This document shows positions 4,772 to 59,206 of a DNA stretch of 64,000 nucleotides, in pieces. How positions within the stretch are numbered: position 1 is the first letter of the stretch; each line of letters begins with the position of its first letter. Position numbers and translations under genes: made by a program. This DNA comes from Candidatus Zambryskiibacteriota bacterium. Lineage in GTDB: Bacteria > Patescibacteriota > Minisyncoccia > Phycocordibacterales > WO2-35-19. The notes beneath the pieces were generated by a model, which had not been told where the DNA came from, did not search any database, and saw only the letters and a program-made list of their open reading frames with translations. Location of the stretch: the NCBI GenBank assembly GCA_963840745.1, contig CAWJAC010000005.1, forward strand, positions 91,615-155,614. Direction: 5' to 3'.

Positions 4772-5719
4772 ATGCAAAAAACATTACTTTCTGGACTTAA
4801 ACCAACGGGAAAGCCACATATAGGCAACTATTTTGGAATGATGAAGCAATGTGTAGATTTGCAATCTGAATACAATTCATATGTATTTGTTGCCGATTAC
4901 CACGCCTTGAACTTTATTCAGAATAAGGAAGAGATGAAATCTCTTATTATAGATGTAATGGTTGATTATCTTGCTATAGGCCTTAACCCAAACAAGTCAG
5001 TAATTTTCAAACAATCGGATGTGCCAGAACATACGGAGTTGGCTTGGATTTTTGACACCATAACCACCGTTCCATATTTGAAGCGTGCCCACGCCTACAA
5101 AGATGCCGTGGACAAGGGTGGTGAAGAAGATGTCAGCGCCGGCACTTTCACGTACCCTATGCTTATGGCGGCCGACATTTTACTTTACGATACCGACATT
5201 GTTCCGGTCGGTCAGGATCAAAAGCAACATATAGAATTTGCCCGCGACACGGCTGAAAAGTTTAACCGAATATTCGGGAAAATTTTTAAGCTACCGGAAC
5301 CTTACATAATTAAAGATGTGGAAACAGTACCGGGCATTGATGGAAGGAAAATGAGCAAAAGCTATAACAATACCATCTCACTATTTGCCGAAGATAATGA
5401 GATTGAAGAAAAAGTCATGAGTATTGTTACCGATTCAAAAGCAGAATATCCTGAAAATGTTTTTTACATTCATAAACTTTTCAGGCCAACATTAGAGCTG
5501 GATAAAATTTATGAGGAAAATAAAGGCAAATACAAAATAGTCAAAGAAATATTGATTGATGATTTAAAAAAATTTATTAAACCACTCCGAGAAAGAAGGG
5601 AAGAAATCGCTAAGAATTTGGATTTTGTAAACAAAGTTTTGGAAGAGGGAAAACAAAAGGCCCGCACTGCAGCTTCAGCCAAAATGCAAGCAGTTAAAAA
5701 AGCAATCGGAGTAATTTAA
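4772..5719 (+). CDS. trpS: tryptophan--tRNA ligase
   Basis: 315 aa. Class I signatures GKPHIGNYFG (HIGH) and KMSKS. Confidence 0.92.
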   Translation: MQKTLLSGLKPTGKPHIGNYFGMMKQCVDLQSEYNSYVFVADYHALNFIQNKEEMKSLIIDVMVDYLAIGLNPNKSVIFKQSDVPEHTELAWIFDTITTVPYLKRAHAYKDAVDKGGEEDVSAGTFTYPMLMAADILLYDTDIVPVGQDQKQHIEFARDTAEKFNRIFGKIFKLPEPYIIKDVETVPGIDGRKMSKSYNNTISLFAEDNEIEEKVMSIVTDSKAEYPENVFYIHKLFRPTLELDKIYEENKGKYKIVKEILIDDLKKFIKPLRERREEIAKNLDFVNKVLEEGKQKARTAASAKMQAVKKAIGVI

Positions 5720-5773
5720 GATACGAAATAATTAATATACTTAGCGAATTGCCACATAATTTAGATAAATAAC

Positions 5774-7182
5774 ATGAAAAGGATATATATTGGGGATTTA
5801 AAAAATGAGATAGGAAAGAGGTCGTTATAAAGGGCTGGGTGAATGTAAGAAGCGACCAAGGCAAAATGGTTTTTATGGATATGCGCGATATGTCAGGCAT
5901 TGTCCAATGTGTCGTTTTACCGGCCAGTTCTGCGATTGAAATAGCAAAGGAAATTAGGACGGAATGGGTTTTGGCTATTTCGGGCATAGTAAACAAAAGA
6001 CCGGATAAAAATGTCAAAGCCGGAGTTTTAAACGGCGATATAGAAATAGAAATTAAAAATATAGAAGTTTTGAATAAGTCGGAAACACTGCCTTTTGATA
6101 TTTCTTCTGATACAAAAGAAATAAATGAGGATGCTAGATTGAAATATAGATATTTGGATTTGCGTTCGGAGAGGATGCAAAATAATATAAGAACGCGCCA
6201 TAAGGTTATAAAACTGGTGCGAGATTCCTTTGATAAGGAAGGATTTGTAGAAATTGAAACACCAATCCTCACCAAATCAACCCCCGAAGGTGCTCGTGAT
6301 TTCGTAATTCCATCCAGACTTTATAAAGGAAAGTTTTACGCTCTGCCCCAGTCACCCCAACAATATAAACAACTTCTGATGACTGCCGGTTGTGAAAAAT
6401 ATTTCCAGATTGCCAAGTGTATGCGCGACGAAGATTCAAGGGGGGACAGACAGCCGGAATTCACTCAGCTTGATATGGAAATGAGTTTCGTTGAACGCGA
6501 AGATGTAATGGCGGTAAACGAAAGAATTTTGATTTCTATCGTAGAGACTTTGTATCCCAACAAAAAAATCCAAGAAAAACCATTTCCAAGAATCTCTTAC
6601 AAGGAAGCTATGGAAAAATATGGCACTGACCGACCGGATTTGAGAAAAGATAAAAATTATCCGGATCTTTTGGCTTTCGGCTGGGTTATAGATTTTCCAT
6701 TTTTTGAAAAAGTCAAAAATTCCGATAACAAGCAGACGAAGGGGGATTGGACCTTCACTCACAACCCATTTTCAAGACCAATTCCCGAGCATATGGAATG
6801 GCTTATGAAAAAAGAAAATTTGGACAAGATTACGACTTCTCAATATGATGTGATATTAAACGGCTACGAATTAGGCGGCGGGAGCATAAGAAATCATCAG
6901 GATGAGGCTTTGCAAAAAGTTTTTGAAATTCTTGGTTACGAAAAAGAATCCATAGAAGCAGACTTCGGCCATATGTTGCAAGCATTCAAATCGGGCACTC
7001 CTCCGCATGGCGGTATCGCCTGGGGGCTGGATCGGCTTGTAATGATCCTGCAGAACGAACCCAACATCCGCGAAGTTATGGCTTTCCCCAAAACCGGCGA
7101 GGGCAAAGACCTGATGATGAACGCTCCCTCCGAAATCTCCGAAAAGCAGCTCCGCGAACTTCATATAAAAATAAGAGAGTAA
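5774..7182 (+). CDS. aspS: aspartate--tRNA ligase, bacterial-type core without the GAD insertion; 5' end frameshifted
   Basis: Track ORF 5839-7182 carries QSPQQYKQLLM, FRDEDSRGDRQPEFTQLD and GGIAWGLDRL. ATG 5774 encodes MKRIYIGDLKNEIGK and joins EVVIKGWVNVR if one A is added to the run at 5815-5817. Confidence 0.85.
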
Positions 7183-7200
7183 ATATGGTAAAATAGCCAT

Positions 7201-7956
7201 ATGCCAGAAGATTTTAAGGTTAAAGTGGGAGAAGTTGAGGGGCCACTGGAGTTTATTTTGGATTTGATTGAAAAGAGGAAGCTCCACATAAGCGATGTGT
7301 CGCTTTCCCAGGTAGCCGACGAGTTCATAGAATACATAAAGTCTTTTGAGGAATTCCCCATGGAGACTTCGGCTGATTTTATCTTGGTGGCTTCTACATT
7401 ACTCCTCATAAAATCAAAATCACTTCTGCCAAACCTGCCGCTTACTGAGGAGGAACAGGGGAGTATTGAAGATTTGGAAAAGAGGTTGGCAAGTTATAAA
7501 AAATACAAGGAATTGGCAGCGGGCTTAGGAAAAATGTTTGGCAATTTTTTGTATTTTGCAAATGAAAGTAAAAAAATTAATGTGGTTTTTTCTCCAACTA
7601 GAGATATCACTTTAACATCCCTCAAAAGCGCTTTAATGGGAGTACTTCAAAATATGCCTCAGAAAATAGAGGCTTTGCCTAAGGTTGTGGTGGAAAAGAT
7701 AGTGAGCCTGGAAGAAATGGTAGAAAAACTTTCAGAAAGGATAAAAACTAGTCTAAAAACAAGTTTTAAAGATTTTTCCCGTTCGACAAGCTCAGGGCAA
7801 GTTGGCATGGATAAAGTAGAGAAAGTTAATGTTATAGTGAGTTTCTTGGCTATGTTAGAATTGGTAAAGCAGGGAATGGTGAGAGTAAACCAAAGCAAAC
7901 ATTTTGAAGATATTGAGATTGAAAGCGAGAGCACAGGAGTGCCAAGTTATTATTAA
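7201..7956 (+). CDS. scpA: segregation and condensation protein A
   Basis: 251 aa. N-terminal FEGPLEFILDLIEKRKLHISDVSLSQVADEF, typical of ScpA. Followed by scpB. Confidence 0.85.
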   Translation: MPEDFKVKVGEVEGPLEFILDLIEKRKLHISDVSLSQVADEFIEYIKSFEEFPMETSADFILVASTLLLIKSKSLLPNLPLTEEEQGSIEDLEKRLASYKKYKELAAGLGKMFGNFLYFANESKKINVVFSPTRDITLTSLKSALMGVLQNMPQKIEALPKVVVEKIVSLEEMVEKLSERIKTSLKTSFKDFSRSTSSGQVGMDKVEKVNVIVSFLAMLELVKQGMVRVNQSKHFEDIEIESESTGVPSYY

Positions 7957-7960
7957 AAAT

Positions 7961-8503
7961 ATGAATTTAGAACAAAAAATAGAAGCCATACTTTTTTATA
8001 AAAACGAGCCGATGGAGATCAAAAAGCTCTCCAAGCTTGTTGGTGTGGGAGAAAGAGAAACAAGAGAAGCTTTGCAAAATTTGGCTAAATTTTTAAGTGG
8101 GAGAGGAATTTGCCTAATAATGACAGATGCAGAGGTTAGCTTAGCCACAGCGCCAGAAATGGCCAGTTTTATTGAGCAAATAGCCAAAAACGAGATGAGT
8201 GATGAAATTGGCAAAGCGGGCTTGGAAACTTTGGCTATCGTGCTTTATAATAACCCTATCAGCCGAAGAGAGGTTGATTATATAAGAGGAGTAAACTCTA
8301 CTTTCATATTAAGAAATCTTTGTGTACGAGGCCTTATAGAAAGAGAACCTGATTCTAGAGATCTTCGAGTTTTCAAGTATAAAGGCAGTCTTTCTCTTTT
8401 GGCCCATCTCGGGCTAAAAACAATTGAAGAATTGCCGGAGTTTGATATGTTTAAAAATAAAATTGAGGAATCGAAAAATTTAATGCAAGAAAATGTGGAA
8501 TAA
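7961..8503 (+). CDS. scpB: segregation and condensation protein B
   Basis: Start chosen at ATG 7961 (MNLEQKIEAILFY..). Two winged-helix halves; GRPILY-like region replaced by GLIEREPDSR. Confidence 0.8.
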   Translation: MNLEQKIEAILFYKNEPMEIKKLSKLVGVGERETREALQNLAKFLSGRGICLIMTDAEVSLATAPEMASFIEQIAKNEMSDEIGKAGLETLAIVLYNNPISRREVDYIRGVNSTFILRNLCVRGLIEREPDSRDLRVFKYKGSLSLLAHLGLKTIEELPEFDMFKNKIEESKNLMQENVE

Positions 8504-27829: not shown

Positions 27830-28810
27830 TCAAGGTTGAATCTTGACTTTTTCGTAAATTTTATTTTTGCAATTTGAAACCACCCGCCGACGAATCAGCA
27901 TATAATCCGGTTTTATAAAATAGCCCAGAAAATCAATCCCATGGTTGGTTTCTTTTAATTTTGTCTTATCAAGATTCAATTTTATGGCCAAGCGATTCCC
28001 CAGAAAATTATTTATAACCGCTTCCAGCGCCAGCAATTTGGACTCGTCATTGTGAAGCAGGACAAAATCGTCCACATACCTCACATAATATTTCATTTCC
28101 AATTTTTGCTTTACAAAATAATCCAGTTCATTCAAATACATATTGGCAAAAAACTGCGAGCTGTAATTGCCGATGGGAAGCCCCGAGCCTTTGGGCGCGT
28201 AAAAAAGTGACTTGCGCCGCGGAATCAGATCAAACAAACGCCGGTCGCCCCTTATCTCGCAATTTTTGGCTGGTTCATGGAAAGTGATTGTTGAACCGAG
28301 CCAAAGTATTTCTTTTTTCCATTCTTCTGTCCGCTCCGCCTTCAAAATAAAATCATTAAAAATATAAAACAATATATCGTGTTTGATAGAGACAAAAAAA
28401 TTTTTGATATCAAGCTGAAGATAATGTACTTTGTCTTTCCCTCCACGCGAACAGGCGCGCAAGTATCTTCTCAGGGTTTTTACAGCTTGGTGCGTCCCCT
28501 TACCTTTGCGACAGGCAAAACTATTAAAGAAAAAACACTTGTCGCTTTCATCCAAAATTTCTCTAACCATTAAGTGGTGAACGATGCGGTCGCGAAAATC
28601 GGCGGCAAATATCTCTCTCGGCTGGGGATATTTAACCACAAAGCATATCGACCGGCCGGGCGCATAGGTTCCGTTTTTCAGTTCAGTGAGCAAATTCATC
28701 AAATTCTCTTCAAGATGGTACTCAAATTTCAAGGCGTTGTCGGTGCTGCGCTTATTTTTCCGGCAATCCAAATACGCTTTGTATAAATTAGTATATGAAA
28801 AAATAGTCAT
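27830..28810 (-). CDS. DGR-1 reverse transcriptase
   Basis: Start at MTIFSY (28810). RT motifs REIFAADFRDRIVHH and YVRYVDDFVLLH (YxDD). DGR-type motif LPIGNYSSQFFANMYLN. Confidence 0.9.
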   Translation of the reverse strand: MTIFSYTNLYKAYLDCRKNKRSTDNALKFEYHLEENLMNLLTELKNGTYAPGRSICFVVKYPQPREIFAADFRDRIVHHLMVREILDESDKCFFFNSFACRKGKGTHQAVKTLRRYLRACSRGGKDKVHYLQLDIKNFFVSIKHDILFYIFNDFILKAERTEEWKKEILWLGSTITFHEPAKNCEIRGDRRLFDLIPRRKSLFYAPKGSGLPIGNYSSQFFANMYLNELDYFVKQKLEMKYYVRYVDDFVLLHNDESKLLALEAVINNFLGNRLAIKLNLDKTKLKETNHGIDFLGYFIKPDYMLIRRRVVSNCKNKIYEKVKIQP

Positions 28811-28829
28811 AACATAAAACCCCACAAAA

Positions 28830-28860
28830 GACAGTGTCAAAGGCCGCCTTTGACACTGTC
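28830..28860. repeat. hairpin, copy 3 of the GTGTCAAAG family, at the avd/RT junction
   Basis: gacagtgtcaaagg-ccg-cctttgacactgtc, a perfect 14-bp stem. Contains the Avd stop codon. Confidence 0.6.
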
Positions 28861-29298
28861 TGCCCATTTGGCCCAGCCGCCGGCCATTTTTTCCATTTCG
28901 GCTATAAACTGCTCCTGCAAATGAGCAAACTGGTTTATTGAAATCAAGTTTATTTCTTGCGACATCCGCAAACGCATTTTCAATCTTTTAAATGCGGCGG
29001 CAAGCTCTGCGATCTTCTCTGCTTTGCGGTCATTGGGAAGAATATTTATTTCAACCACCAAATCAAGGCAACGCCAAGACAAATCAAGAATTTCCCGGCC
29101 GAGAGAATATTTATGTTCTCTCGGAAAACTGCGGATAATATTGTGCAAATACTTCGTCATCGCGTAAGATTTGCGGTAAAGAGACAGATTTTCGCAATCG
29201 CTCATTTTTTGGTTGTTTGGCTGTCTGAATAGGCGCTTCCCTTCTTTAGTGTGCAGAAGGTGCCCTTCTGCATTTATTTGCGGCAAACGCCCATTCAA
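28837..29298 (-). CDS. avd: DGR-1 accessory variability determinant (Avd-like four-helix-bundle protein)
   Basis: YRKSYAMTKYLHNIIRSFPREHKYSLGREI...EMEKMAGGWAKW. The likely true start is MSDCEN at 29205 (122 aa). Confidence 0.8.
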   Translation of the reverse strand: MNGRLPQINAEGHLLHTKEGKRLFRQPNNQKMSDCENLSLYRKSYAMTKYLHNIIRSFPREHKYSLGREILDLSWRCLDLVVEINILPNDRKAEKIAELAAAFKRLKMRLRMSQEINLISINQFAHLQEQFIAEMEKMAGGWAKWADSVKGGL

Positions 29299-29317
29299 AC
29301 CTTGCTTTTATAAATTT

Positions 29318-29441
29318 CCCGGAGACGCACCGCACGGCGTAGGCGTTATTCTTGTTGTTGTTGTTGTTCGGCACACCAGTGCTGAAATTGACGTTCCAAG
29401 CGTTCGTGGCACTGTTCTCAGTAGAGCTCCAGTATATGGAG
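29318..29441 (-). repeat. DGR-1 template repeat (TR)
   Basis: 124-nt gap-free match to 30540-30663. Coding-sense TR contains AAC AAC AAC AAC AAC. All 9 differences lie at TR adenines. Confidence 0.92.
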
Positions 29442-29618
29442 AACTGAATTCTCCCGCCTTTTCAATTCTCAAATATCTTAAAAAAATATTTTGCAATCAA
29501 TTCCCCATCATATTTGATGTAGGCGCGGGAGCGTGGTTTATATAGCAATCTCTCTTAAATCCGCGCAGCTTTTGCCGCAACAGCACTTAAGATTCCGGCC
29601 AAAGTTAATTAATAAAAT

Positions 29619-30449
29619 TTAATTTTCAATTTTCTTTTTGTTTTTCCGATTTTTCAAAAAATTTTTCTTTGACACAACTGACTTGCCCAGTTCTTTTTCA
29701 AGCTCTTTTCTGGCATTTCCGGCTATTTTTCCGCCTCGGTTTGCGTCTTGTTTTAGTTTTGGAATTCCCCTTGAATCTTCCTGACGATGAATTTCGGTTG
29801 TTGAACGCTCACCCAACATATTAAAAATAAGTTCAAAATCATCCATATGATCACGCAGATTTTCTCTTTTGAGTCCTTTTAGTTTTTTGTATTCACTCGG
29901 AGTAACGCCAAAAGTGGCTTTGGAAATTTCGGCAGTTAAAATTTCATATTCTCTTTCTTCTTTAGCTCCTCTTTTTTTCCATTCATCCGTCAATTCCTCG
30001 CGAATGGCGATGCCTCTCATTCTTTTCTCTATCCAATCATCGGAATATCCTTTGAGTTTGTAAAGTATCCTGGTTCTTTTTGTAGCCAATTCCGGATTTT
30101 CAATTTCTTGTACTCTTTCATACCCCACTTTTGCCAACCAGCGTTTGAATGGTTCAGCTTTGGGCGAAGGAATTGATTGGATGATGCGAAACATACCTTC
30201 CACATCGGCGCAATCTGTTTCTCTCATTTTTCCGTCTGGGGCTGGTAATTTCAACTGTCTACAAATTGTAGATAGTTGAAATCCGTCTTCATTTTTAATC
30301 CTAGCTTTCATAGCTGTCCAATATGCACTTGGTCTATCACTATCCGTCAATGTTTCTATAACATCAATAACAGAAAACCACCATTCATTTTGAAAAATGG
30401 TTTTTCTAATTTTTCGACCTTTAAATAACGCTATTTTTGTTGTTTCCAT
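29619..30449 (-). CDS. Bro-N / DNA-damage-inducible protein D (DinD)-like protein
   Basis: N-terminal Bro-N pattern (IRKTIFQNEWWFSVIDVIETLTDS..P..YW). C-terminal DinD-like region (AKVGYERVQEIENPELA...LTAEISKATFG). Confidence 0.7.
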   Translation of the reverse strand: METTKIALFKGRKIRKTIFQNEWWFSVIDVIETLTDSDRPSAYWTAMKARIKNEDGFQLSTICRQLKLPAPDGKMRETDCADVEGMFRIIQSIPSPKAEPFKRWLAKVGYERVQEIENPELATKRTRILYKLKGYSDDWIEKRMRGIAIREELTDEWKKRGAKEEREYEILTAEISKATFGVTPSEYKKLKGLKRENLRDHMDDFELIFNMLGERSTTEIHRQEDSRGIPKLKQDANRGGKIAGNARKELEKELGKSVVSKKNFLKNRKNKKKIEN

Positions 30450-30533
30450 TTTTTTATTCTCTTTTTTCGCGCGAGGATGGGAAAATAAAACTAAATTAAA
30501 AATTAAAAAATTAATAAATGGGGCAAATGGGAA

Positions 30534-30986
30534 CTACCACCCGGAGACGCACCGCACGGCGTAGGCGATATTCTTGCCGTTGCCGTTGCCCGGCACACCA
30601 GTGCTGAAATTGACGTTCCAAGCGTTCGTGGCACTGTACTCAGTAGAGCTCCAGTACATGGAGGTTCCGAAATTATTCCCGAATTTTGTCGCGCGGTAAG
30701 TGTATATGGCATTCAATTCATCAATTGTCGGCAATCGACCACCGATGGCTTTGCAAGCGTCTCGGGCCGCATAACTGCTGAAATTTATGGTGTTGTCGGC
30801 TTTCAGATTGTCTCCGTCCTGCCCGCCATCGATGCCGCATTGCGGCCTATCACAAGCCGTGTTGGTCGGTTTCCAGGCGTAAGCTTGTCCTCCGGGTAAG
30901 AGAAGTGGTGGCAACCAAAATATAATTTCCATCACCCAGACGATCGATAATGACATCATCGTAACCGGTGCCGCAAAACCAAACAT
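30534..30986 (-). CDS. DGR-1 variable target protein, DUF1566/C-type-lectin-like C-terminus
   Basis: GGRLPTIDELNAIY...MYWSSTEYSATNAWNVNFSTGVPGNGNGKNIAYAVRCVSGW. The 5' end is uncertain: frames upstream suggest a fusion with 30989-31171. Confidence 0.85.
   Translation of the reverse strand: MFGFAAPVTMMSLSIVWVMEIIFWLPPLLLPGGQAYAWKPTNTACDRPQCGIDGGQDGDNLKADNTINFSSYAARDACKAIGGRLPTIDELNAIYTYRATKFGNNFGTSMYWSSTEYSATNAWNVNFSTGVPGNGNGKNIAYAVRCVSGW
30540..30663 (-). repeat. DGR-1 variable repeat (VR)
   Basis: Covers the last ~41 codons of the target. Differs from the TR at + positions 30568, 30577, 30578, 30583, 30584, 30589, 30590, 30638 and 30657 only. Confidence 0.92.
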
Positions 30987-50137: not shown

Positions 50138-50178
50138 GAGGGTGACCCTTGAGGATTCTGCCCCAAAGGGTCACCCTC
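50138..50178. terminator. 13-bp perfect hairpin overlapping the RT-2 stop codon
   Basis: gagggtgaccctt-(15 nt)-aagggtcaccctc. A second GC hairpin, ccctcccct-tgatc-aggggaggg, lies at 50064-50086. Confidence 0.5.
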
Positions 50179-51157
50179 AATTCCTCTTTCCTTTAATCCA
50201 ATTCTTGGGTATTCTACGATTTAGCTTCTGTAACAGCTTAATCTTCAATCCTCTTGATCGACAATGAGAGAGAATGCCGTTATAGGAAGAAAAATTCTTA
50301 TCAGTAGCTTTCCTTAACATTCTCTTCTTGGTTTTAGTCCTCAAAATTCTGTAATTGGGAAAACAAACATAACCAAGATAATCAATACCGCTTGAATAAG
50401 TTTTTAAGACTATCTTATCCGGATGGATTTTTAGTTTCAGATTTTTCTCTGTAAAATCTTGAATCTTTAAAAGGCATGCCTCTAAAAAACTTCTGTCCGG
50501 GTGCATAAGTAAAAAATCATCAGCATATCTGATATATCCTCCAACTTTCAATTCGTGCTTCACAAACTGGTCGAGCTTATTCATGTAAATATTGGCGAAA
50601 ATCTGAGAAGTGAGATTGCCAAGCGGTATGCCAGAGTCAAAACTTTCCGTTATATCTTCAAGAAGTTTGATTAATCTGCCATCAAAAGTCTCTTTTCTTA
50701 ATATTTTTAGAAGTATTTCGTGATCAACGGAATCAAAAAATTTCTTGATGTCCAGCTTCAATATCCACAAAGTCCTGCTATTGTTGCGAGAAAGCTTAAG
50801 CCCCATTTTATGAAGGCGTTTAATAGCCCAATGAGTGCCTTTGTATTTTCTGGAAGACCATGAATCAAAGATGAATTTCTTGTCCCACATCTGCTCTATG
50901 ACTCTGATAATTGCATGATGCAAAAGCCTGTCACGGACACTTGCCTTGTGGATATGCCTCTTTTTTGGATCATTAATGAAAAAGGAAAAATAACCGCCAT
51001 GTTTATAAGTCCCATTTACCAGATCTTCATGCAATCTAAAAATATTGTCTTCAAGACTAAGCTCAAACTCAGCGACATCCTTCTTTCTCCTTTTGTCCCT
51101 ACGAAACTCAGTCCAAGCGTCGAACAAATTTTTTAATGAAATAATTTTTTCAAACAT
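50177..51157 (-). CDS. DGR-2 reverse transcriptase
   Basis: Start MFEKII at 51157 (alternative 51181). RHIHKASVRDRLLHH, IRYADDFLLMH (YxDD). DGR-type IPLGNLTSQIFANIYMN. Confidence 0.9.
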   Translation of the reverse strand: MFEKIISLKNLFDAWTEFRRDKRRKKDVAEFELSLEDNIFRLHEDLVNGTYKHGGYFSFFINDPKKRHIHKASVRDRLLHHAIIRVIEQMWDKKFIFDSWSSRKYKGTHWAIKRLHKMGLKLSRNNSRTLWILKLDIKKFFDSVDHEILLKILRKETFDGRLIKLLEDITESFDSGIPLGNLTSQIFANIYMNKLDQFVKHELKVGGYIRYADDFLLMHPDRSFLEACLLKIQDFTEKNLKLKIHPDKIVLKTYSSGIDYLGYVCFPNYRILRTKTKKRMLRKATDKNFSSYNGILSHCRSRGLKIKLLQKLNRRIPKNWIKGKRN

Positions 51158-51158
51158 A

Positions 51159-51536
51159 ATGAATACAAAAAATGATATCAAAACCGCCGAACAAACTCCT
51201 CTGTTTCAGGCGGTCTATAAGTTGTATCTATCATGGTATGTCAGATGCAGCCAAATTCCAAAGAAAGACAGGTTTACCATCGGCCAAAAAACGGAAAACT
51301 TGCTTTTGGAGATTCTGATTCTTATAGTTACCGCTTACCACACAAACAATCCGGAATATAAAAGGCAATCTCTGTCTAAAGCAAATACTTTGCTTGAGTG
51401 CATTAAGGTTACTATTCGACTGGCCAAAGATGTAAAAGCTCTGGAACAGCGCTGGTACATAGATTATCAGACCAGAATCCAAGAAATGGGCAAAATGCTA
51501 GGCGGGTGGATCTCTAGCACAAAACTTGATTTATGA
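51159..51536 (+). CDS. avd: DGR-2 Avd-like four-helix-bundle protein, divergent from the RT
   Basis: AVYKLYLSWYVRCSQIPKKDRFTIGQKTE...IQEMGKMLGGWISS. Same ..P(K/R)..(F/Y)(T/S)(I/L)G.. and M.GGW pattern as Avd-1. Confidence 0.75.
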   Translation: MNTKNDIKTAEQTPLFQAVYKLYLSWYVRCSQIPKKDRFTIGQKTENLLLEILILIVTAYHTNNPEYKRQSLSKANTLLECIKVTIRLAKDVKALEQRWYIDYQTRIQEMGKMLGGWISSTKLDL

Positions 51537-51759
51537 TATACTTAAATTTATGATAAATATGACATTAAAAAAACCAAACAGTAGAGTGCTTTTCTCAAGC
51601 CTTTGGGAGGCCCGTAGGAGAATTTCAACGCTTACAAAGCAACAAAAATCTACCCTTGAAAAGGAGTGGGATGTTGAGCATGCCTACTACTCTAGCGCCC
51701 TGGAAGGAAGTAAACTAGATAAGAAAGAGTTCGAAAAATTAGGAGAAAAGATTGATTAA
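51526..51759 (+). CDS. small protein carrying a Fic inhibitory-helix motif (S/T)xxxE(G/N)
   Basis: ..EHAYYSSALEGSKLDKKEFE... Either a class-I-like Fic antitoxin or the detached N-terminus of the next gene. Confidence 0.5.
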   Translation: MIYDILKFMINMTLKKPNSRVLFSSLWEARRRISTLTKQQKSTLEKEWDVEHAYYSSALEGSKLDKKEFEKLGEKID

Positions 51760-51767
51760 ATACCGCT

Positions 51768-52409
51768 ATGGCAGAACGACCTCATAACGAAGAAGAATTA
51801 CAAAAGCGAGAGGCTGTCGGAGTAATCCGAGCCTCTCGTTTTGTCAGACGTTATGCCAATTCGCATAAACCAATTGATGTAAATACCATCTCACTTGTTC
51901 ACAAAGAAATATTTAAAGAAGCTTGGCCAGAAATAGCAGGTAAATATCGTTATGAAAATTTGAAAATTACCGACTCAAAACATTTACCGCCACACTATTC
52001 TCAAGTTTCTGAACAGATGGAGGATGCAGGAAGAGAATTTTCCAACCAACTTGAAAAACTCCAAAAAGTTGAAGGTCTCTTAATTATGAACCAAAATCCA
52101 ACCGATGAAGTTTTGAGGGTCATTGACGATATTGTGACCTGTGCCGCTTGGATACATCACCTCATTACTTACATACATCCGTTTCGTGACGGCAATGGCA
52201 GAACTGCGCGACTGGTGGCAAATCTTATTTTGGAACGCTATGGTTTGGTCGGTATTTCCATAAAGATGGAAAAGGAAAACAAAAATAAGTACCGCCAAGC
52301 TCTTGCTCAAATCGACAATGTTAAAGATTATAAACCGCTCAAAGCCATTATTTACGAGGGATTGATTGATCGTTATAACGGAGTGAGTATAAAATATTAC
52401 AATGTTTAG
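51768..52409 (+). CDS. Fic domain protein
   Basis: HPFRDGNGRTARL (HxFx[DE]GNGRxxR). Confidence 0.85.
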   Translation: MAERPHNEEELQKREAVGVIRASRFVRRYANSHKPIDVNTISLVHKEIFKEAWPEIAGKYRYENLKITDSKHLPPHYSQVSEQMEDAGREFSNQLEKLQKVEGLLIMNQNPTDEVLRVIDDIVTCAAWIHHLITYIHPFRDGNGRTARLVANLILERYGLVGISIKMEKENKNKYRQALAQIDNVKDYKPLKAIIYEGLIDRYNGVSIKYYNV

Positions 52410-52482
52410 ATATTTGAAAGTTCTTGTTTAATAAGCTATTATTATAGTGTCTGAAATTTTATTACTTTTTTAATATAAAATT

Positions 52483-52923
52483 ATGTCAGAAAAATTTGAA
52501 AAAGGTATCACCCCTGAGGGGTCCAAAGAGAAGTTTTATGTGTTTGTCGAGCTTGGAACTAGAGATTTTGAATACGAGGTACATGCATCATCTGAAGAAG
52601 AAGCAGAAAAACTTGCTGAACAAGCGATAAACGAGCAGGGGTTAAAAATATCAAATATTGAAGTAAATGAAAAAGCGCTTAATCCTGATCATATAGATGG
52701 CAAATTGGGAGACGAAACAAAAGAAAGCCAAAAAACATATTATGTTTTTGTTGAACTTGGGACAAAAGGGTTAAATTTTGAAGTAATAGCCACATCAGAA
52801 GAAAAAGCCGAACAAATTGCCGCTGACAAAGTTAACGAAAGAGGACTGAAAGTTGCATATGTTGAAGCCAACAAACAACCACCCTCCCCAATGTTATCAG
52901 ATGTTGAAATGTTGGAAGAATAA
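52483..52923 (+). CDS. hypothetical protein made of two tandem ~60-aa repeats
   Basis: KFYVFVELGTRDFEYEVHASSEEEAEKLAEQAINEQGLKISNIEVNEKA versus KTYYVFVELGTKGLNFEVIATSEEKAEQIAADKVNERGLKVAYVEANKQ. Confidence 0.5.
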   Translation: MSEKFEKGITPEGSKEKFYVFVELGTRDFEYEVHASSEEEAEKLAEQAINEQGLKISNIEVNEKALNPDHIDGKLGDETKESQKTYYVFVELGTKGLNFEVIATSEEKAEQIAADKVNERGLKVAYVEANKQPPSPMLSDVEMLEE

Positions 52924-52956
52924 ATTTTTAGAGTTAAATTAGCAAAATACACAGCC

Positions 52957-52988
52957 AAAACGAACGGATAAATGTCCGTTCGTTTTTT
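52957..52988 (+). terminator. rho-independent terminator (12-bp stem plus T-run), abutting the TR-2 3' end on the other strand
   Basis: aaaacgaacgga-taaatg-tccgttcgtttt followed by ttttct. Confidence 0.7.
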
Positions 52989-53004
52989 CTCTATGAGAGT
53001 GACT

Positions 53005-53120
53005 TCGGAGGGAAACAACACCCAAATTGTCGTTGCGATTGTCGGGGTTATCGTTGTTGACGTTGACGCCGTTGCGGTCAGCGTTGCCGAGATTCACAAG
53101 CTTGCCGTTAGAGGAAAGGG
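53005..53120 (-). repeat. DGR-2 template repeat (TR)
   Basis: Coding-sense TR is rich in AAC/AAT codons (..NGKLVNLGNADRNGVNVNNDNPDNRNDNLGVVSLR). 115-nt gap-free alignments to three VRs. Confidence 0.92.
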
Positions 53121-53417
53121 TTGTTTTTGCGTCTCTCCATCCAAATCAGGGGCCGTAACTGGGCAGACGCATCTTATAGGATGTAAGTAGCGCCTGTTGT
53201 GTAAAAATGCGGTGGCTGATTTAATCCGTCACCTAAGTGAATTTACATAAATCACCACTCCAGAGCGACGCAAGCAGTTCTTCTCTCATAATTCAATATT
53301 GGCGAGAATCATGACATGCACGATCCTTCATTAGCCATAAGCATTATACACCAAAAAATTGCGGCGAAGAAACCAAAGGTTTAAAGAAAAAAGATCTAAA
53401 GTATCAAGAGAGAAAAA

Positions 53418-54401
53418 TCAGCGGAGGGAAACAACACCCAAACCGTCGTGGCGACAGCCGGGGTTACCGCTGCTGACGCTGACGCCGTTACGGTCAGCGC
53501 TGCCGAGATACACAAGCCTGCCGTCAGAGGAAAGGGCGTTTGACCAGTCGTAATTTGCTTCCAAAATGCCTCTTTCTTTTTTGTTTCTAAACTGCAAAAC
53601 CCAGTCGTACAATATTTCAGCCGGAATTCGCCTGTGATTTTTATTTATCAAAAGTTCCGAGAGTTTCTTGGCCACTTCTTTCCAGTTTTTATCATAATCT
53701 TCGTCAAGCATTTTTTGTAAACCTTCAAGGAATTCGTCAGTGCATTCTTCCTGCTCCTCCTTTGAAACAGAATCCAAACCCAAAAGATAATCACGCAACA
53801 CTTTAGTCTGCTCTATATAATTTTTACTTGTGGAATCAGGTACAAAATTTTTGCCAACCAGTTTCCATTCAGTCCTTAAGGAAGCGTTTTTGAAAAAATC
53901 TTCTTCACTGTACCAATCTGTATCATAAAGCAATTTTTCCTGTTCTTCTTCGCTATCTTCTTCTAAAATTGCTTGCATTAGACCGTTCATTCTCTCCATA
54001 GTCATAGGAGAGCCTTCTCCATCGCTTTCCACTCTTAATACAAGCATCTCTCCATTCTCTTTGGCTTTCTCCAATACTTCCGGACCATAAGGAATAGCCG
54101 GTATTTTATCGGTAGAAACTTCAAAGCCAAAAGTGTTCTTTATTTCTTCAACTCCATAAAAACTTTCGCCCATAATTTCTTGGGCTTGCTCGTATGAAGT
54201 CTCCATTCCTTCACTTGTCTTTTTACTGCCAACACCAAGTTCTTGCTTAAGTTTTATATATTTCTCTTTTATGGCCTTGAGTTCCTGAACACTTAAAACG
54301 CTAAGGTCCCGACCTCTTTGAATACCGGTTATTTCTTCAAGAATTTTAGAGCCGAGTTCACTCTCTTTTTCGGGATTTGTAGTTTTAGGTGCGCCTTCCA
54401 T
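53418..54401 (-). CDS. DGR-2 variable target protein A
   Basis: 327 aa with no signal peptide or TM. C-terminus ..NYDWSNALSSDGRLVYLGSADRNGVSVSSGNPGCRHDGLGVVSLR contains VR-A. Confidence 0.85.
   Translation of the reverse strand: MEGAPKTTNPEKESELGSKILEEITGIQRGRDLSVLSVQELKAIKEKYIKLKQELGVGSKKTSEGMETSYEQAQEIMGESFYGVEEIKNTFGFEVSTDKIPAIPYGPEVLEKAKENGEMLVLRVESDGEGSPMTMERMNGLMQAILEEDSEEEQEKLLYDTDWYSEEDFFKNASLRTEWKLVGKNFVPDSTSKNYIEQTKVLRDYLLGLDSVSKEEQEECTDEFLEGLQKMLDEDYDKNWKEVAKKLSELLINKNHRRIPAEILYDWVLQFRNKKERGILEANYDWSNALSSDGRLVYLGSADRNGVSVSSGNPGCRHDGLGVVSLR
53422..53536 (-). repeat. DGR-2 variable repeat A
   Basis: 14 differences from the TR at TR adenines, plus one synonymous non-A difference (53490). 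Confidence 0.9.
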
Positions 54402-54487
54402 ATTTATTGTTTATTAGTTTTATTTTATTTAAAGCCAGTATATCATAAAAAATTTCGCGGAAAAACCAAAGAAACAAAGAAAAAAGG

Positions 54488-55412
54488 TCAAAGCTTCAAG
54501 ATGAGAAAAGAACAGCGGAGGGAAACAACACCCAAATAGTCGCCGCGACTGTCGGGGTGAACGTTGCTGACGTAGACGCCGTAGCGGTCAGCGTCGCCGA
54601 GAATCACAAGCTCGCCGTCAGAGGAAAGGGCTGCTGTCCAATCGTAAGTCTTCTCTAAAATTCGCTCGTTATTGCCCTTTATAGAGAGTAGGATGTCATA
54701 AAGGACTTCAGGTGGCAGTCTTCTATGATTTTTGTTTACGGTAAGCTCGAGAGAGCCTTCTGGCCGCTTCTTGCCAATCCGATTTCATGATCTCATTGAT
54801 TTCTGCAAGAACCTTGTCAGAACATTCTTTCGCCTCATCTTCAGTCAGAGAACCAACCGAAGCAAGATATTCTCTTAAAATTTTTGTCTGTTCAATATAA
54901 TTTGTGGAATTTTCTGCTTTGCCTCCATATGAAGTGGTTATGGATTCCGGCAACGGTGCTTTTGATGTTAACCTCCATTTCAAGCGAGGGTGAGCATTTG
55001 GAATTGGCGTACCATCTTTATTTATTCCAGTATAAAATGGCTCATCTTTATACCAACAACTACTTTCTAATTTTGCTGAGCCAGACTTATCTTGTCCGTA
55101 CAAAACTTTAACTTTTTCTCCAGTAGCAGGGTCGGTCAATTCAGGAATAATTTCAAGCATATGAGATATGGTCAGGAATTTGCCTTCACTATCTTTATCA
55201 ACCCCCAACACAAGCATCTCTCCATTTTCTTTAGCTTTTTCAAGATCATCTGGTGAATATGGCATATCAGGAATGTCTTCAAGAGCTACTTTGATGCCAA
55301 AAGTCTTTTCAATTTTCTCCGGTCCCATATAATCCTTACCAAGCATTTCTTTGGCCAATTCCATTTTTTTCAATAGAGTATCAGGTAAAGCTCTTCTCTC
55401 CGGCTTTGGCAA
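54488..55412 (-). CDS. DGR-2 variable target protein B (frameshifted; altered stop)
   Basis: Track ORF 54723-55412. The VR frame continues ..LELTVNKNHRRLPPEVLYD...YDWTAALSSDGELVILGDADRYGVYVSNVHPDSRGDYLGVVSLRCSFLILKL to TGA 54488. Shift near 54750. The ORF may start upstream of 55412. Confidence 0.7.
54516..54630 (-). repeat. DGR-2 variable repeat B
   Basis: 13 differences from the TR, all at TR adenines. Confidence 0.9.
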
Positions 55413-55546
55413 TTTACCACTTGCTTCAACTTCAGCTTTTAATTTCTCAATATCTTTAATAAGTCCGGCTTTCTCTGGAGATACACCACCAATTTCCAGT
55501 CTTTTTCTTTTTGACTCACCTGGTTTAGGTTTATATTCAACCAGTC

Positions 55547-56638
55547 TTATGAGCTCCCCGAGCTTTTTCTGTCGGCATCACTTTCCAATTTATTGGCATA
55601 ATAATAACGGAGAGCTTGCTGCATGGTTTCGTTTATATCTCCATTGTAGAATCTCAAAATAAAATCCCTGACTCTGCGAGGTTCCATACGATCATCGTAA
55701 GTGAACGATTGTGGCTGGTCCTCGGCAATTTTTCTGTTTTTCAAAAGTTCTTTGGCCGCTCTATGGAATTCTTTAAATTTTTCCAAGACTTCAGGCAGTC
55801 CGGGAATATCTTGTAGTTGCTCTGTTGTTAAACCTTCGCCTCTGGCCCTAAGGAACATGTCGGGAGTTATATTTTGCGTTCCAGATCCAATTCCAAAAAA
55901 AGCATCTGTTGAAAATGAGAATGTGCCTTCTGGAAGTTCGGTTGGCAGTTTTTTGTAAACCCATCTTCGAAGTTGAGCAGGATCTAGTGGTTCTCGGCCA
56001 AAATATCCTTTGCCTGGAGGGTTCATAAGAGCGATAATCTTGGTTTTTTCTTTATTTACCGCCACTGCTTCAGAAGCGTCTTCAGACAACACAACATCAC
56101 CACCCCTTTCAAGAGAGTCTAAAACTTCATGGAGGCGAATGAGGATATTCGGGGCTGAAGCATTGAATTCGTCCAATATAATTATTTTTGTCTTGCCTTC
56201 TTCTTGCCTCAAACCGCTTGTTACTTTGCCGTCTGCAAAAATATATTCAGGATCTTCAGGTTTGCTTTTATGAGGATTGGGAATGTATCTGCCCATCAAA
56301 TCTTCAACATCAGTTGCGCCGTTAAGGTTCGCATAATGAATCTCCCAACCAAGTTCAGCTGCCATTTTTTTAACAGTAGTAGTTTTCCCTAAAGAAGTAC
56401 CTCCATCAACAAGTAATGGTTCACCACTTACAAACGCCACAGCGATATCCCTTTGAAGAGGCAAAGCAACTTCTTTGTCATTTATAAAATCTTTGTATTG
56501 CTCTCTTCTTGGTATAAATTGACCATTGCCACCTTTTGCTTTTTCCAAAGTGACTCCTAAATATGACGCTGAATTTTCAGTTTCAGTTATTGGCTCTAAA
56601 TTTTCTGGTGCTTCAGGTTGTGATTCGCTAAATTTCAT
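55547..56638 (-). CDS. MoxR-like AAA+ ATPase
   Basis: Walker A GGTSLGKTT, Walker B IIILDEFNA. AAA_5/MoxR-type length and layout. Confidence 0.8.
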   Translation of the reverse strand: MKFSESQPEAPENLEPITETENSASYLGVTLEKAKGGNGQFIPRREQYKDFINDKEVALPLQRDIAVAFVSGEPLLVDGGTSLGKTTTVKKMAAELGWEIHYANLNGATDVEDLMGRYIPNPHKSKPEDPEYIFADGKVTSGLRQEEGKTKIIILDEFNASAPNILIRLHEVLDSLERGGDVVLSEDASEAVAVNKEKTKIIALMNPPGKGYFGREPLDPAQLRRWVYKKLPTELPEGTFSFSTDAFFGIGSGTQNITPDMFLRARGEGLTTEQLQDIPGLPEVLEKFKEFHRAAKELLKNRKIAEDQPQSFTYDDRMEPRRVRDFILRFYNGDINETMQQALRYYYANKLESDADRKSSGSS

Positions 56639-57055: not shown

Positions 57056-57194
57056 ATAGCTTATTTATACTAAAAACAATGGATATTTGCAACTTTATAT
57101 TTGTTACCAACATACTGACCGGCAATGTTTAAAAGTAAACTTTATAAACTTTTGAGAATTTGCCTAACTTTATAAAGTTTGCTAAAATAGCTCC

Positions 57195-58127
57195 ATGACA
57201 ACAAAACAAAAATTAGAGATTATTCAAAAGATGCTGGGACTTACCCAGACTAAACTGGCAGAGAGATTTGATGTATCCTTCCCTACTCTTAACAGTTGGC
57301 GAACTGGCAAATCTACACCGAGACCCAAAATGCAAGCCACAATAGACGAGTTATTTTTGGAAGTAACAGGGCAAAAAATAATTCCGGAAGATGCTCTTGT
57401 GGCCAAAAAACAGGCGCTATTGCAAAAATCAAAAGAACATAAAAACATAGTCGCTGAGATTTTGAATAACCCAGATGTCAGAGATCAATTCATTCTCAAA
57501 CTCACTTATCACAGTAACAAAATAGAAGGCAGCACTTTGAGTGAACCGGACACGGCAGCCATCCTTTTTGATAACGCAGCCTTACCTAACAAAAGTTTGA
57601 CCGAACAACTTGAAGCCAAAAATCATCAAACGGCTTTGAATTATTTGTTTGATCATATCGCTAAAAAAGAAAAAATTGACGAAATATTTGTGTTAAAACT
57701 GCACAGCGTTTTAATGAACGGGGTTCGTCCTGATGCTGGCGCTTACCGCAATCATGCCGTCCGAATAACTGGCGTCAATTTACCTACTGCAAATTATGTG
57801 AGTGTACCCAAGCTTACAGCAGAAGTCATAAAACGAATTGAAAACAAAAACAATGATAACATAATCGCTATTTCTGCGAATATACACAGCAAATTCGAAC
57901 AAATCCACCCATTTTCAGATGGAAATGGCCGGGTCGGCCGACTGCTTATGAATGCAATGTTACTTGAGGCAAATTTTGCTCCAGCGATCATTCGCCAGCA
58001 GCAAAAACAGCTTTACTACACCTATCTTTACAAAGCCCAAACTACAGAAGACCAGAGTCAACTCCAAAATTTCCTTTGCGATTCTATTTTTTATGGATTC
58101 GAAATTTTAGAACGCAAAGATAAATAA
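57195..58127 (+). CDS. Fic domain protein with N-terminal XRE-type HTH
   Basis: LGLTQTKLAERFDVSFPTLNSWRTG. Internal inhibitory motif SNKIEGS. HPFSDGNGRVGRL. Confidence 0.85.
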   Translation: MTTKQKLEIIQKMLGLTQTKLAERFDVSFPTLNSWRTGKSTPRPKMQATIDELFLEVTGQKIIPEDALVAKKQALLQKSKEHKNIVAEILNNPDVRDQFILKLTYHSNKIEGSTLSEPDTAAILFDNAALPNKSLTEQLEAKNHQTALNYLFDHIAKKEKIDEIFVLKLHSVLMNGVRPDAGAYRNHAVRITGVNLPTANYVSVPKLTAEVIKRIENKNNDNIIAISANIHSKFEQIHPFSDGNGRVGRLLMNAMLLEANFAPAIIRQQQKQLYYTYLYKAQTTEDQSQLQNFLCDSIFYGFEILERKDK

Positions 58128-58228
58128 AAACAGGAAAACCAAAGAATCAAAGAAAAAAGATCAAAGATTCAAGTAGAGACCCGCCTCCGCCTCTCGCTAC
58201 GCTCGGGCTACGGACGGGCAAGGAAGAA

Positions 58229-59196
58229 CTAGCGGAGGGAAACAACACCCAAATAGTCGTCGCGATGGCCTGGGCTAGCGGTGTAGACGTCGACGCCGCT
58301 GCGGCCAGCGCTGCCGAGACTCACAAGCCTGCCGCCAGAGGAAAGGGTATTAGACCAATCCCAGTTTTTTTCTAAAATACCTCTATCTTTTTTATTTTTG
58401 AATTGCAGTATCCAGTCGTATATTATTTCAGCCGGGGTACGTCTGTGGTTTTTATTGATCATGAGTTCAGATAATCTCTTGGCAACTTCTTTCCAATTCT
58501 TTTCCCAATCTTTATCTAACATATCTTGAAGTTCTTTTAGAACATCGTCAGTACATTCTTCTTTTTCTTCATCAGAAAGTGACTCTAGATTTAGGAGATA
58601 ATCTCGTAATACTTTAGTCTGCTCTATATAATTTTTACCAGTAGAATTCGGCACAAAATTTTTGCCAACTAATTTCCATTCGGTTTTGACTGAAATTTCT
58701 TTAAAAAATGGCTCATTTATATACCAATCTTGATCATAAAATAGTTTACCTTCTTTATCTTTATCCATCTTTGATTCCATCATTGCTTTCATTTCCAACA
58801 TGGTCATAGAAGCTCCGCTCCCGTTATATTCAATTCTAAGTATTAGGAATTCACCCAATTCTTTGGCTTTCTCCAAAACTTCTGAACTATATGATACGGG
58901 AGGAATTTTGTCAGCAGAAAATTCAAAACCAAAAGCGTTTTTTATCTCTTCCACTCCGTAAAAACTGTCGCCCATAATCTCCTGGGCTTGTTCGTATGAA
59001 GTTTCTAATTCTTCCTCACTTTCAATATTTAATTCTTGCTTTAACTTTATATATTTCTCTTTGATGGTTTTCAACTCTTTTACACTTAAAGCACCTAGGT
59101 CACGGCCCTTTTGTATATGTTCTATTTCTTTAAAAATAGCAGACGAGGAATTTTCGCTTTTTTTCCCTCTTCTTTTTTAATTGGCGATCCTTCCAT
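58229..59196 (-). CDS. DGR-2 variable target protein C (5' end frameshifted)
   Basis: Track ORF 58229-59074. ATG 59196 (MEGSPIKKEEGKK) rejoins if the A7 run (59158-59164 on +) is A8. C-terminus ..NWDWSNTLSSGGRLVSLGSAGRSGVDVYTASPGHRDDYLGVVSLR. Confidence 0.8.
58233..58347 (-). repeat. DGR-2 variable repeat C
   Basis: 16 differences from the TR at TR adenines, plus one synonymous non-A difference (58271). Confidence 0.9.
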
Positions 59197-59206
59197 TTTT
59201 TAAATA

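Follow-up and report, generated by a model that had tools for sequence, protein, structure and literature searches.

DGR-2, one of two diversity-generating retroelements (DGRs) in a 64,000-nt stretch of contig CAWJAC010000005.1 from a Candidatus Zambryskiibacteriota bacterium (the whole stretch is termed the window below), is likely to be a normal, functional DGR of the Patescibacteria, or candidate phyla radiation (CPR), with the architecture designated B3, in which the template repeat (TR) has been separated from the accessory gene avd by an inserted cassette that carries a Fic gene. It should not be reported as broken or as a new kind of element, but as a standard CPR B3 element with a passenger Fic cassette. 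Architecture B3, "TR-(avd)-RT", accounts for 90% of CPR DGRs, and DGRs with sandwiched genes have also been listed (Wu et al. 2018, NAR 46:11, PMC5758913). Gene anatomy was established from an open reading frame (ORF) listing and Pfam scans of the window, and a genome scan with the reverse transcriptase (RT) protein provided 80 loci for comparison (L numbers below), nearly all in metagenome-assembled genomes of Patescibacteria; the window's own record is not among them and the nearest RT relatives, with 78-92% identity, are in Zambryskibacteria. The features that define the layout of DGR-2 are:

50177-51157, minus strand: RT, 326 aa from the ATG at 51157 (Pfam RVT_1, 2.6e-26)
51155-51161, both strands: head-to-head starts CAT-T-ATG, with the RT ATG at 51157-51155, the avd ATG at 51159-51161 and 1 nt between them
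51159-51536, plus strand: avd, 125 aa (Pfam bAvd, 9.5e-18, 65 bits against a cutoff of 40)
51520-52961, plus strand: lineage-specific insertion, 1,436 bp including one CAAAAC copy, with direct repeats at 51520-51525 and 52956-52961
52957-52986: stem-loop of 13 pairs, followed on the plus strand by a T-run (terminator scan)
53006-53120, minus strand: TR, 115 nt, with adenine-specific mismatches to three variable repeats (VRs)

Layout across relatives and the inserted cassette

A first-pass annotation of this DNA had placed the TR 1.85 kb from the RT, behind four plus-strand genes (avd, a Fic pair and an ORF with tandem repeats), and the coordinates bear this out, with ~1,849 nt, the four genes and a hairpin between the TR 3′ end and the RT ATG. 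In the comparison set, an Avd profile search located avd immediately upstream of the RT gene, on the opposite strand, in 68 of the 80 loci, and a collinear avd-RT arrangement only in the distant, non-CPR loci L070, L075 and L077. A search of the relatives for repeats with adenine mismatches identified the TR on the RT strand just past the avd stop codon, with a VR 240-470 nt further upstream. The arrangement of a TR upstream of the RT gene on the same strand, with an opposite-strand avd between them, is present in all 56 fully mapped loci, the window among them. What sets the window apart is distance. The TR end is -33 to +58 nt from the avd stop codon and 382-499 nt from the RT gene in 55 other loci, versus ~1,460 nt and ~1,850 nt, respectively, in the window, the sole outlier in both measures and the only one of the 56 loci in which unrelated genes separate the TR from avd.

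These distances are accounted for by a single insertion. Alignment by blastn documented that window position 51521 is joined directly to 52950-52956 in the genomes L001, L002 and L065 and in the metagenome contigs L082, L083 and L085. In these insert-free relatives, the avd frame continues into the hairpin and has its stop codon in the hairpin loop, so the cassette landed between the last codons of avd and the avd terminator. The insertion is also present, with 99.9% identity over 1,776 nt, in a locus from another sample (L081), and it is therefore not an assembly artefact. A locus from a third sample, L094, that is 13% diverged (86.9% nucleotide identity over 3.2 kb) has the same split layout, with the order RT, 1-nt gap, avd, 69-aa ORF, Fic, tandem ORF, hairpin, TR and leader. 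Comparison of the window with L094 gives dN/dS values of 0.05, 0.02, 0.04, 0.22 and 0.12 for RT, Avd, the 69-aa ORF, Fic and the tandem ORF, respectively, with dS ranging from 0.4 to 1.1 over the five genes and 0.6-0.7 for RT and Avd. A shared layout, with purifying selection on all five genes, argues that the split arrangement was inherited and is functional. Of the two explanations offered in the first-pass annotation, disruption of a canonical cassette by an inversion or a functional arrangement that acts in trans, this synteny comparison refutes breakage by rearrangement and supports the second. That two lineages have retained the insertion under purifying selection, at the seam between the two units, provides natural evidence for separable template-RNA and avd/RT units and for a TR RNA that is capable of action in trans.

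The cassette contains three ORFs:

51526/51550-51759, plus strand: small ORF, 69 aa from 51550, with an inhibitory-helix motif S-x-x-x-E-G (YYSSALEGS)
51768-52409, plus strand: Fic-domain protein, 213 aa (Pfam Fic, 8.4e-17; motif HPFRDGNGRTAR)
52483-52923, plus strand: tandem ORF, 146 aa, with two ~51-aa repeats that are identical at 24/51 positions (47%)

The Fic protein matches the PADLOC profiles PDC-S04 (5e-23) and SoFic (9e-18), and the NCBIfam VbhT and Fic equivalog scores for the cassette are far below cutoff. The 69-aa ORF aligns weakly to the N-terminus of one PDC-S04 profile and is called as a separate 69-aa gene in L081 and L094. Both sequence features of a class I Fic pair, an HxFx(D/E)GNGRxxR motif and a separate protein with (S/T)xxxE(G/N), are present, and from their sequences the two genes would constitute either a class I-like antitoxin/toxin pair or a stably split class II Fic. 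The tandem ORF has no Pfam match above cutoff; three clusters of homologues were found, one homologue (62%) adjoins a DDE transposase, and there is a promoter-like site at 52414-52442 ahead of the ORF. In the other 80 loci, no homologues of Fic, the 69-aa ORF or the tandem ORF are located next to avd. Our reading is that the cassette is mobile cargo that joined the avd operon. To our knowledge, a Fic pair inside a DGR avd operon is not a known feature.

The proteins encoded on either side of the abutting start codons are readily recognized. The RT has the DGR-type motifs LGNLTSQ and YADD, as read from the translation, and all of its close homologues adjoin TR/VR pairs. Opposite-strand starts for RT and avd, 1 nt apart, had been proposed together with an alternative RT start at 51181 that would overlap avd. 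RT conservation begins exactly at MFEKIISLKNLF, MFEKIISL(K/E)NLFDAW, in ten close relatives, with an unrelated in-frame translation upstream, and in L002 and L065 two stop codons interrupt the avd frame seven codons ahead of its ATG. The abutting ATGs are therefore real, and the overlapping start, a TTG at 51181, is unlikely. The spacing is 1 nt in the window and L001 (CATTATG), 0 nt in L002 and L065 (CATATG) and 4 nt in L003-7 (CATATTTATG), and across the close relatives there are either 0-6 nt or a small overlap (CCATGA) at this junction. As the first-pass annotation reasoned, the avd and RT promoters would each have to be inside the coding sequence of the opposite gene; for the whole clade, this should apply unless the transcripts are near-leaderless. 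A scan for such divergent promoters returned only weak 9/12 matches, 17 versus 11.4 expected by chance, and the -10-like strings within the first codons of avd and RT are not retained in L065 or L003. Exact-protein look-ups for Avd (125 aa) and RT (326 aa) returned no match, probably as a consequence of other start codons having been chosen by gene callers.

The template repeat and its leader RNA

The relationship of the TR to its three VRs is that expected of adenine-specific mutagenesis, with 44 of the 46 TR-VR mismatches at TR adenines, and VR-A and VR-C each having one mismatch at another base:

53418-54401, minus strand: target A, 327 aa, with VR-A at its C-terminus
53422-53536, minus strand: VR-A, the C-terminus of target A; 14/15 mismatches at TR adenines
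54516-54633, minus strand: VR-B, in target B; 14/14 mismatches at TR adenines
58233-58348, minus strand: VR-C, in target C; 16/17 mismatches at TR adenines

In VR-A and VR-C, the repeat extends to the stop codon of the target ORF. The TR and all VRs share their final 21 nt (TTTGGGTGTTGTTTCCCTCCG) without a difference and diverge thereafter, and this sequence pattern makes the 21 nt a candidate 3′ boundary like the initiation of mutagenic homing (IMH) site. A ~45-nt A/G-rich sequence on the plus strand (repeat family D5) is located directly downstream of each VR (53369-53413, 54462-54506 and 58135-58179) and may be part of a target-site recognition region that extends beyond the IMH. In the window, L001 and L002, the VRs track their own TR at non-adenine sites. 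VR-C matches the TR at all but one non-adenine site although its gene, target C, is a paralogue only 68% identical to target A, and retrohoming has therefore occurred in the window lineage. RT, Avd, TR, leader, stem-loop and targets A and C are all intact. The TR state in the window at CCCCGACAATC is ancestral, being shared with L002, and a G/A site at AACGAT gives conflicting signals. The TR of L094 (L094:4452-4569) has the L001-type segment CCCAGGGCAACGC, rather than CCCCGACAATCGC as in the window.

The strong hairpin that the first-pass annotation recognized at the 3′ side of the TR has 13 pairs, and its arms covary in L001, L002 and L065 (arm pairs ACGAACGG/CCGTTCGT, ACGAACAG/CTGTTCGT and AACGGGCAA/TTGCCCGTT). 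On the plus strand it is predicted, from its sequence, to end the avd operon as an intrinsic terminator. Read as minus strand, where only four T follow it, it is a candidate terminator of the TR RNA and/or, by analogy, an Avd-binding stem-loop. A hairpin at this location is not universal; in about half of the loci there are only 0-20 nt between TR and avd. The sole two differences between L081 and the window in 1,776 nt are in the hairpin 3′ arm and loop (L081:1622-1623 versus 52974-52975, GT to AC) and shorten the stem in L081 from 13 to 11 pairs. In Bordetella, a stem-loop just 3′ of the TR binds Avd and a duplex of upstream and downstream sequences stops cDNA synthesis; both elements are also reported, as predictions, for most Avd-type DGRs (Handa et al., bioRxiv 10.1101/2023.10.23.563531).

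Upstream of the TR, the target A stop codon (53418) is separated from the TR by 297 nt, and this intervening sequence, which follows VR-A, is better conserved than coding DNA (83-84% versus ~75% in L065). It contains a structured leader that, to judge from the features below, would be transcribed from its own promoter:

53343-53348, minus strand: TATAAT box that precedes the conserved GGCUAAUGAAG by 6 nt, candidate TR-RNA promoter
53121-53336, minus strand: structured leader, ~215 nt, with hairpin P1 (53336-53301) and a long-range helix (53273-53262 with 53138-53127)
52992-52999 (CUCUCAUA) with 53283-53290 in the leader (UAUGAGAG), minus strand: helix that closes the TR into a loop

The leader structure was obtained from a 25-locus alignment (A2) with RNAalifold. 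P1 has the motif GGYUAAUGAA-hairpin-YCRCCGAAAU, and the long-range helix ends 6 nt short of the TR. In the leader helices, 95.6% of cells are paired, versus 71% when shuffled (0/500) and 39-47% with slid partners, double changes are present in 20 of the 25 pairs, and the covariation score is 0.716 versus 0.09-0.15 for the slid controls. A covariance model of P1 (R1) matches once per DGR in ~40 loci, in every case on the RT strand and ahead of the TR, and exactly once, at 53295-53339, in the entire window. In relatives, a box with the sequence TGnTATAAT or TATACT is positioned 8-16 nt ahead of the conserved GGYUAAUGAA leader motif (6-16 nt with the window included), and the TATAAT box is retained across loci with RT identities of 45-92%. 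Leader:post-TR duplexes evaluated over 20 loci average -15.2 kcal/mol for a locus's own pairs versus -9.7 kcal/mol for cross pairs (permutation p<5e-5). Many relatives also have a second leader hairpin with the same UUUACGGAU loop. An Rfam search of 52800-53500 identified no relevant family, only two sub-threshold chance matches, on the opposite strand at the hairpin.

Based on these features, DGR-2 would consist of two modules. The protein module would be avd and RT, transcribed divergently from the abutting starts CAT-N-ATG. The second would be an autonomous template-RNA gene, with the -10 box, the ~215-nt leader, the 115-nt TR, the pairing 3′ segment and the stem-loop at 52986-52957 which, in relatives, would double as the avd terminator with the avd stop codon in its loop. 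The 1,436-bp cassette was inserted at what would be the exact seam between the two modules. It became part of the avd operon, ahead of the former terminator, left the hairpin attached to the TR and lengthened the TR-to-RT distance from ~417 nt to ~1,850 nt. A self-contained TR gene would explain why the seam between avd and hairpin tolerates an insertion. The RT-Avd complex presumably acts in trans on the TR RNA, so that the element would have continued to work thereafter. By analogy with Bordetella DGR RNA, the leader and stem-loop are proposed to participate in priming, stopping and Avd binding. The leader RNA is relevant to the open question of how RT-Avd is recruited by DGR RNAs that do not follow the Bordetella model.

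The avd genes of many relatives have an additional feature that is not present in the window. In 47 related avd genes, a poly-C tract of 8-12 nt or a (CA)n tract of 12-29 nt is located in the 5′-coding region, between an upstream ATG and the conserved DIPIF motif of the Avd N-terminus (examples are L010:9964, L033:2004, L034:6947 and 1289, L035:9959, L037:9942 and L056:1311, and also L086-L093). In 46 of the 80 loci, such a tract precedes the RT match by 20-136 nt; elsewhere in 1.1 Mb there are only 13 similar tracts, of which two are at second DGRs. Only 7 of the 47 genes have the upstream ATG in the same frame as the body of Avd. Six contigs with the same RT protein do not differ over 3.2 kb other than in the tract, which is G9 to G11 on the RT strand, and a seventh, L092, has G12; the avd calls in these contigs are 128 aa (ON) and 113 or 101 aa (OFF). 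These sequences suggest slipped-strand phase variation of a DGR accessory gene, and the tracts bear on the open question of how cells limit the cost of a hypermutator. No description of the leader RNA or of the avd tracts was found in Rfam 15 or the searchable literature, a search that Paul et al. 2017 lay outside. The leader RNA family and the avd tracts are more novel than the finding that DGR-2 is a B3 DGR with a passenger cassette.

We advance, tentatively and with somewhat less than even confidence, a more general proposal for this CPR clade. The template would be an autonomous, promoter-driven non-coding RNA (ncRNA) with its RT/Avd-recruiting and priming/stop domain 5′ of the TR, as in retrons and the reverse of the Bordetella Sp RNA; the insertion would be a natural experiment that reveals action in trans at 1.85 kb; and in most relatives, but not in the window, the avd tract would gate the system as a stochastic on/off switch for hypermutation.

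Weighing the alternatives

The layout alone invites the explanation that an inversion of ~51159-52990 broke a collinear cassette and left DGR-2 non-functional or crippled, as a block of plus-strand genes, avd, Fic and ORF, is flanked by the TR and the RT gene on the minus strand, and the window also contains a collinear element, DGR-1. With the reversed avd being the norm in the clade (68/80 loci) and published as B3, with relatives that differ by an insertion with defined breakpoints, and with strong purifying selection on RT and Avd in the split layout, this explanation, proposed in the first-pass annotation, is hardly credible; the DGR-1 RT, only 37% identical to that of DGR-2, belongs to a different lineage. 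There is somewhat more to be said for DGR-2 as a decaying relic with frozen VRs that was inactivated by the insertion, since target B is frameshifted, VR-A and VR-C each have a non-adenine mismatch, there have been two insertions and a change at the Avd C-terminus, and the TR states do not date retrohoming to after the insertion. The intact RT, Avd, TR, leader and stem-loop, dN/dS values of 0.02-0.05 for Avd and RT at a dS of 0.6-0.7 between two genomes that both have the insert, and a match of VR-C to the TR that requires retrohoming in the window lineage nevertheless make decay quite improbable. We consider equally improbable that the cassette has been recruited as an accessory or regulatory module of the DGR with, for example, Fic modification coupled to diversification. 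It is co-oriented with avd, ahead of the avd terminator and under purifying selection in two lineages, and a second Fic gene (HTH-Fic; HTH, helix-turn-helix) arrived with target C at the same locus, but no cassette homologue adjoins avd in the 80 other loci, a homologue of the tandem ORF has a DDE transposase as its neighbour elsewhere, the Fic genes are similar to stand-alone families with defence or toxin-antitoxin functions (PDC-S04, SoFic), and the tandem ORF is preceded by its own promoter-like site.

The rival with the most in its favour, albeit still unlikely, concerns the origin of the TR RNA. The first-pass annotation suggested read-through from target A, and in its full form this explanation dispenses with a TR promoter; in relatives the transcript would continue, antisense through avd, into the RT gene, and the insertion would have uncoupled RT. 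The TR does follow target A on the minus strand, 297 nt away, with only a weak terminator candidate (53270-53253) between them, only four T follow the hairpin on the TR strand, and in many relatives the gap between the TR and the avd stop is only 0-8 nt, which leaves no room for a hairpin. However, a conserved TATAAT box and a structured leader intervene, and the box, as TATAAT or TGnTATAAT, is at a fixed distance before the leader motif in loci with RT identities of 45-92%. In the L003 group, moreover, the VR is separated from the box by a strong terminator hairpin, and RT is under purifying selection despite 1.85 kb of antisense genes upstream. As the TR appears to be a self-contained RNA gene, a dedicated promoter is the more likely source of its transcript.

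Several observations weigh against DGR-2 as a normal B3 element with its own template-RNA gene. Use of the TR promoter, the ends of the RNA and its action in trans are predicted from sequence. The extended -10 element in the window is imperfect, with GTG directly abutting TATAAT, and no -35 element is evident. In the subgroup to which the window belongs, the closing helix has only 8 bp, ranks 9/20 when own pairs are compared with cross pairs and so has weaker support. The NCBIfam model DivGenRetAVD scores Avd at 72 bits, just under its 80-bit cutoff, and the insertion has changed the last residues of the protein, with the last four codons KLDL* in the window versus CKTNG* or similar in relatives. 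Polarisation of TR states against L001 and L002 is ambiguous as to retrohoming after the insertion, and the L094 and L081 sequences do not reach the VRs. Presence of the insert and TR allele do not give a single clean tree, hinting at possible recombination or repeated gain and loss. Target B, finally, is frameshifted in the window.

Neighbouring features and comparison with known systems

The remaining features of the locus, and DGR-1, are:

54507-56638, minus strand: target B, AAA_5 (Pfam), broken into three or more frames
57077-59203: second window-specific insertion, with HTH-Fic at 57195-58127 (plus strand) and target C at 58229-59074 (minus strand) (Pfam)
27830-30986, minus strand: DGR-1, with VR 30540-30663, TR 29318-29441, avd 28837-29298 and RT 27830-28867

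Frame analysis divided target B into pieces at 55547-56638 and 54723-55412 plus the piece with VR-B. Its orthologue is a single AAA_5 ATPase-VR fusion of ~720-800 aa in L001, L002, L004, L006, L007 and L062, intact in L001 as one ORF (5699-8086), and target B in the window is either a pseudogene or the product of sequencing errors. Target A has no Pfam, NCBIfam or PDB sequence match, and target C no Pfam or NCBIfam match. The second insertion is absent from L001, L002, L083 and L084; both insertions at the DGR-2 locus bring a Fic gene.

In DGR-1, the TR, avd and RT are collinear on the minus strand, as had been noted in the first-pass annotation. It has the succession VR, an unrelated 276-aa gene, TR, avd and RT, corresponding to B3 in order except that avd is in the forward orientation, and its target has a C-lectin-like VR of the YAVRCVSGW type at its end. 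A search of DGR-1 for the GGYUAAUGAA leader motif was negative.

DGR-2 closely resembles the B3 DGRs documented in CPR genomes (Wu et al., PMC5758913; Paul et al. 2017 groundwater set), having its TR upstream on the RT strand with an antisense avd between, several targets with C-terminal VRs, one of which is a P-loop/AAA NTPase-VR fusion (Wu category g1), and a Zambryskibacteria-like CPR genome as its host. It differs from them in having three extra genes between avd and the TR, a TR-RT distance of 1.85 kb and a replaced avd C-terminus. The cassette shares the HPFxDGNGRxxR core, and an inhibitory S-x-x-x-E-G helix provided by a small upstream ORF, with Fic toxin/antitoxin and defence families (class I VbhT/VbhA; SoFic, PDC-S04), but scores far below the equivalog cutoffs and its pair may be a split class II Fic.

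The DGR of Bordetella phage BPP-1 (mtd-avd-TR-brt; Handa et al. 2018; bioRxiv 10.1101/2023.10.23.563531) has in common with DGR-2 an adenine-specific transfer of sequence from TR to VR and the use of an RT together with Avd. At the RNA level, both have a stem-loop directly 3′ of the TR and pairing of upstream and downstream sequences that brackets the template. In BPP-1, however, a single transcript carries all components collinearly, and the structured RNA for priming, 'Sp', is a segment of 140 nt on the 3′ side of the TR, whereas DGR-2 has a large structured domain 5′ of the TR, an antisense avd and, apparently, a TR promoter of its own. In topology only, DGR-2 is reminiscent of retron ncRNAs (msr-msd, with a1/a2 pairing), in which the template comes after a structured 5′ domain in a separate ncRNA gene used by the RT, and a 5′:3′ helix brings the 5′ domain next to the 3′ end of the template. 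The resemblance stops there, as neither a branched product nor a priming G is indicated for DGR-2, its RT is of the DGR type, and its output is retrohoming into VRs.

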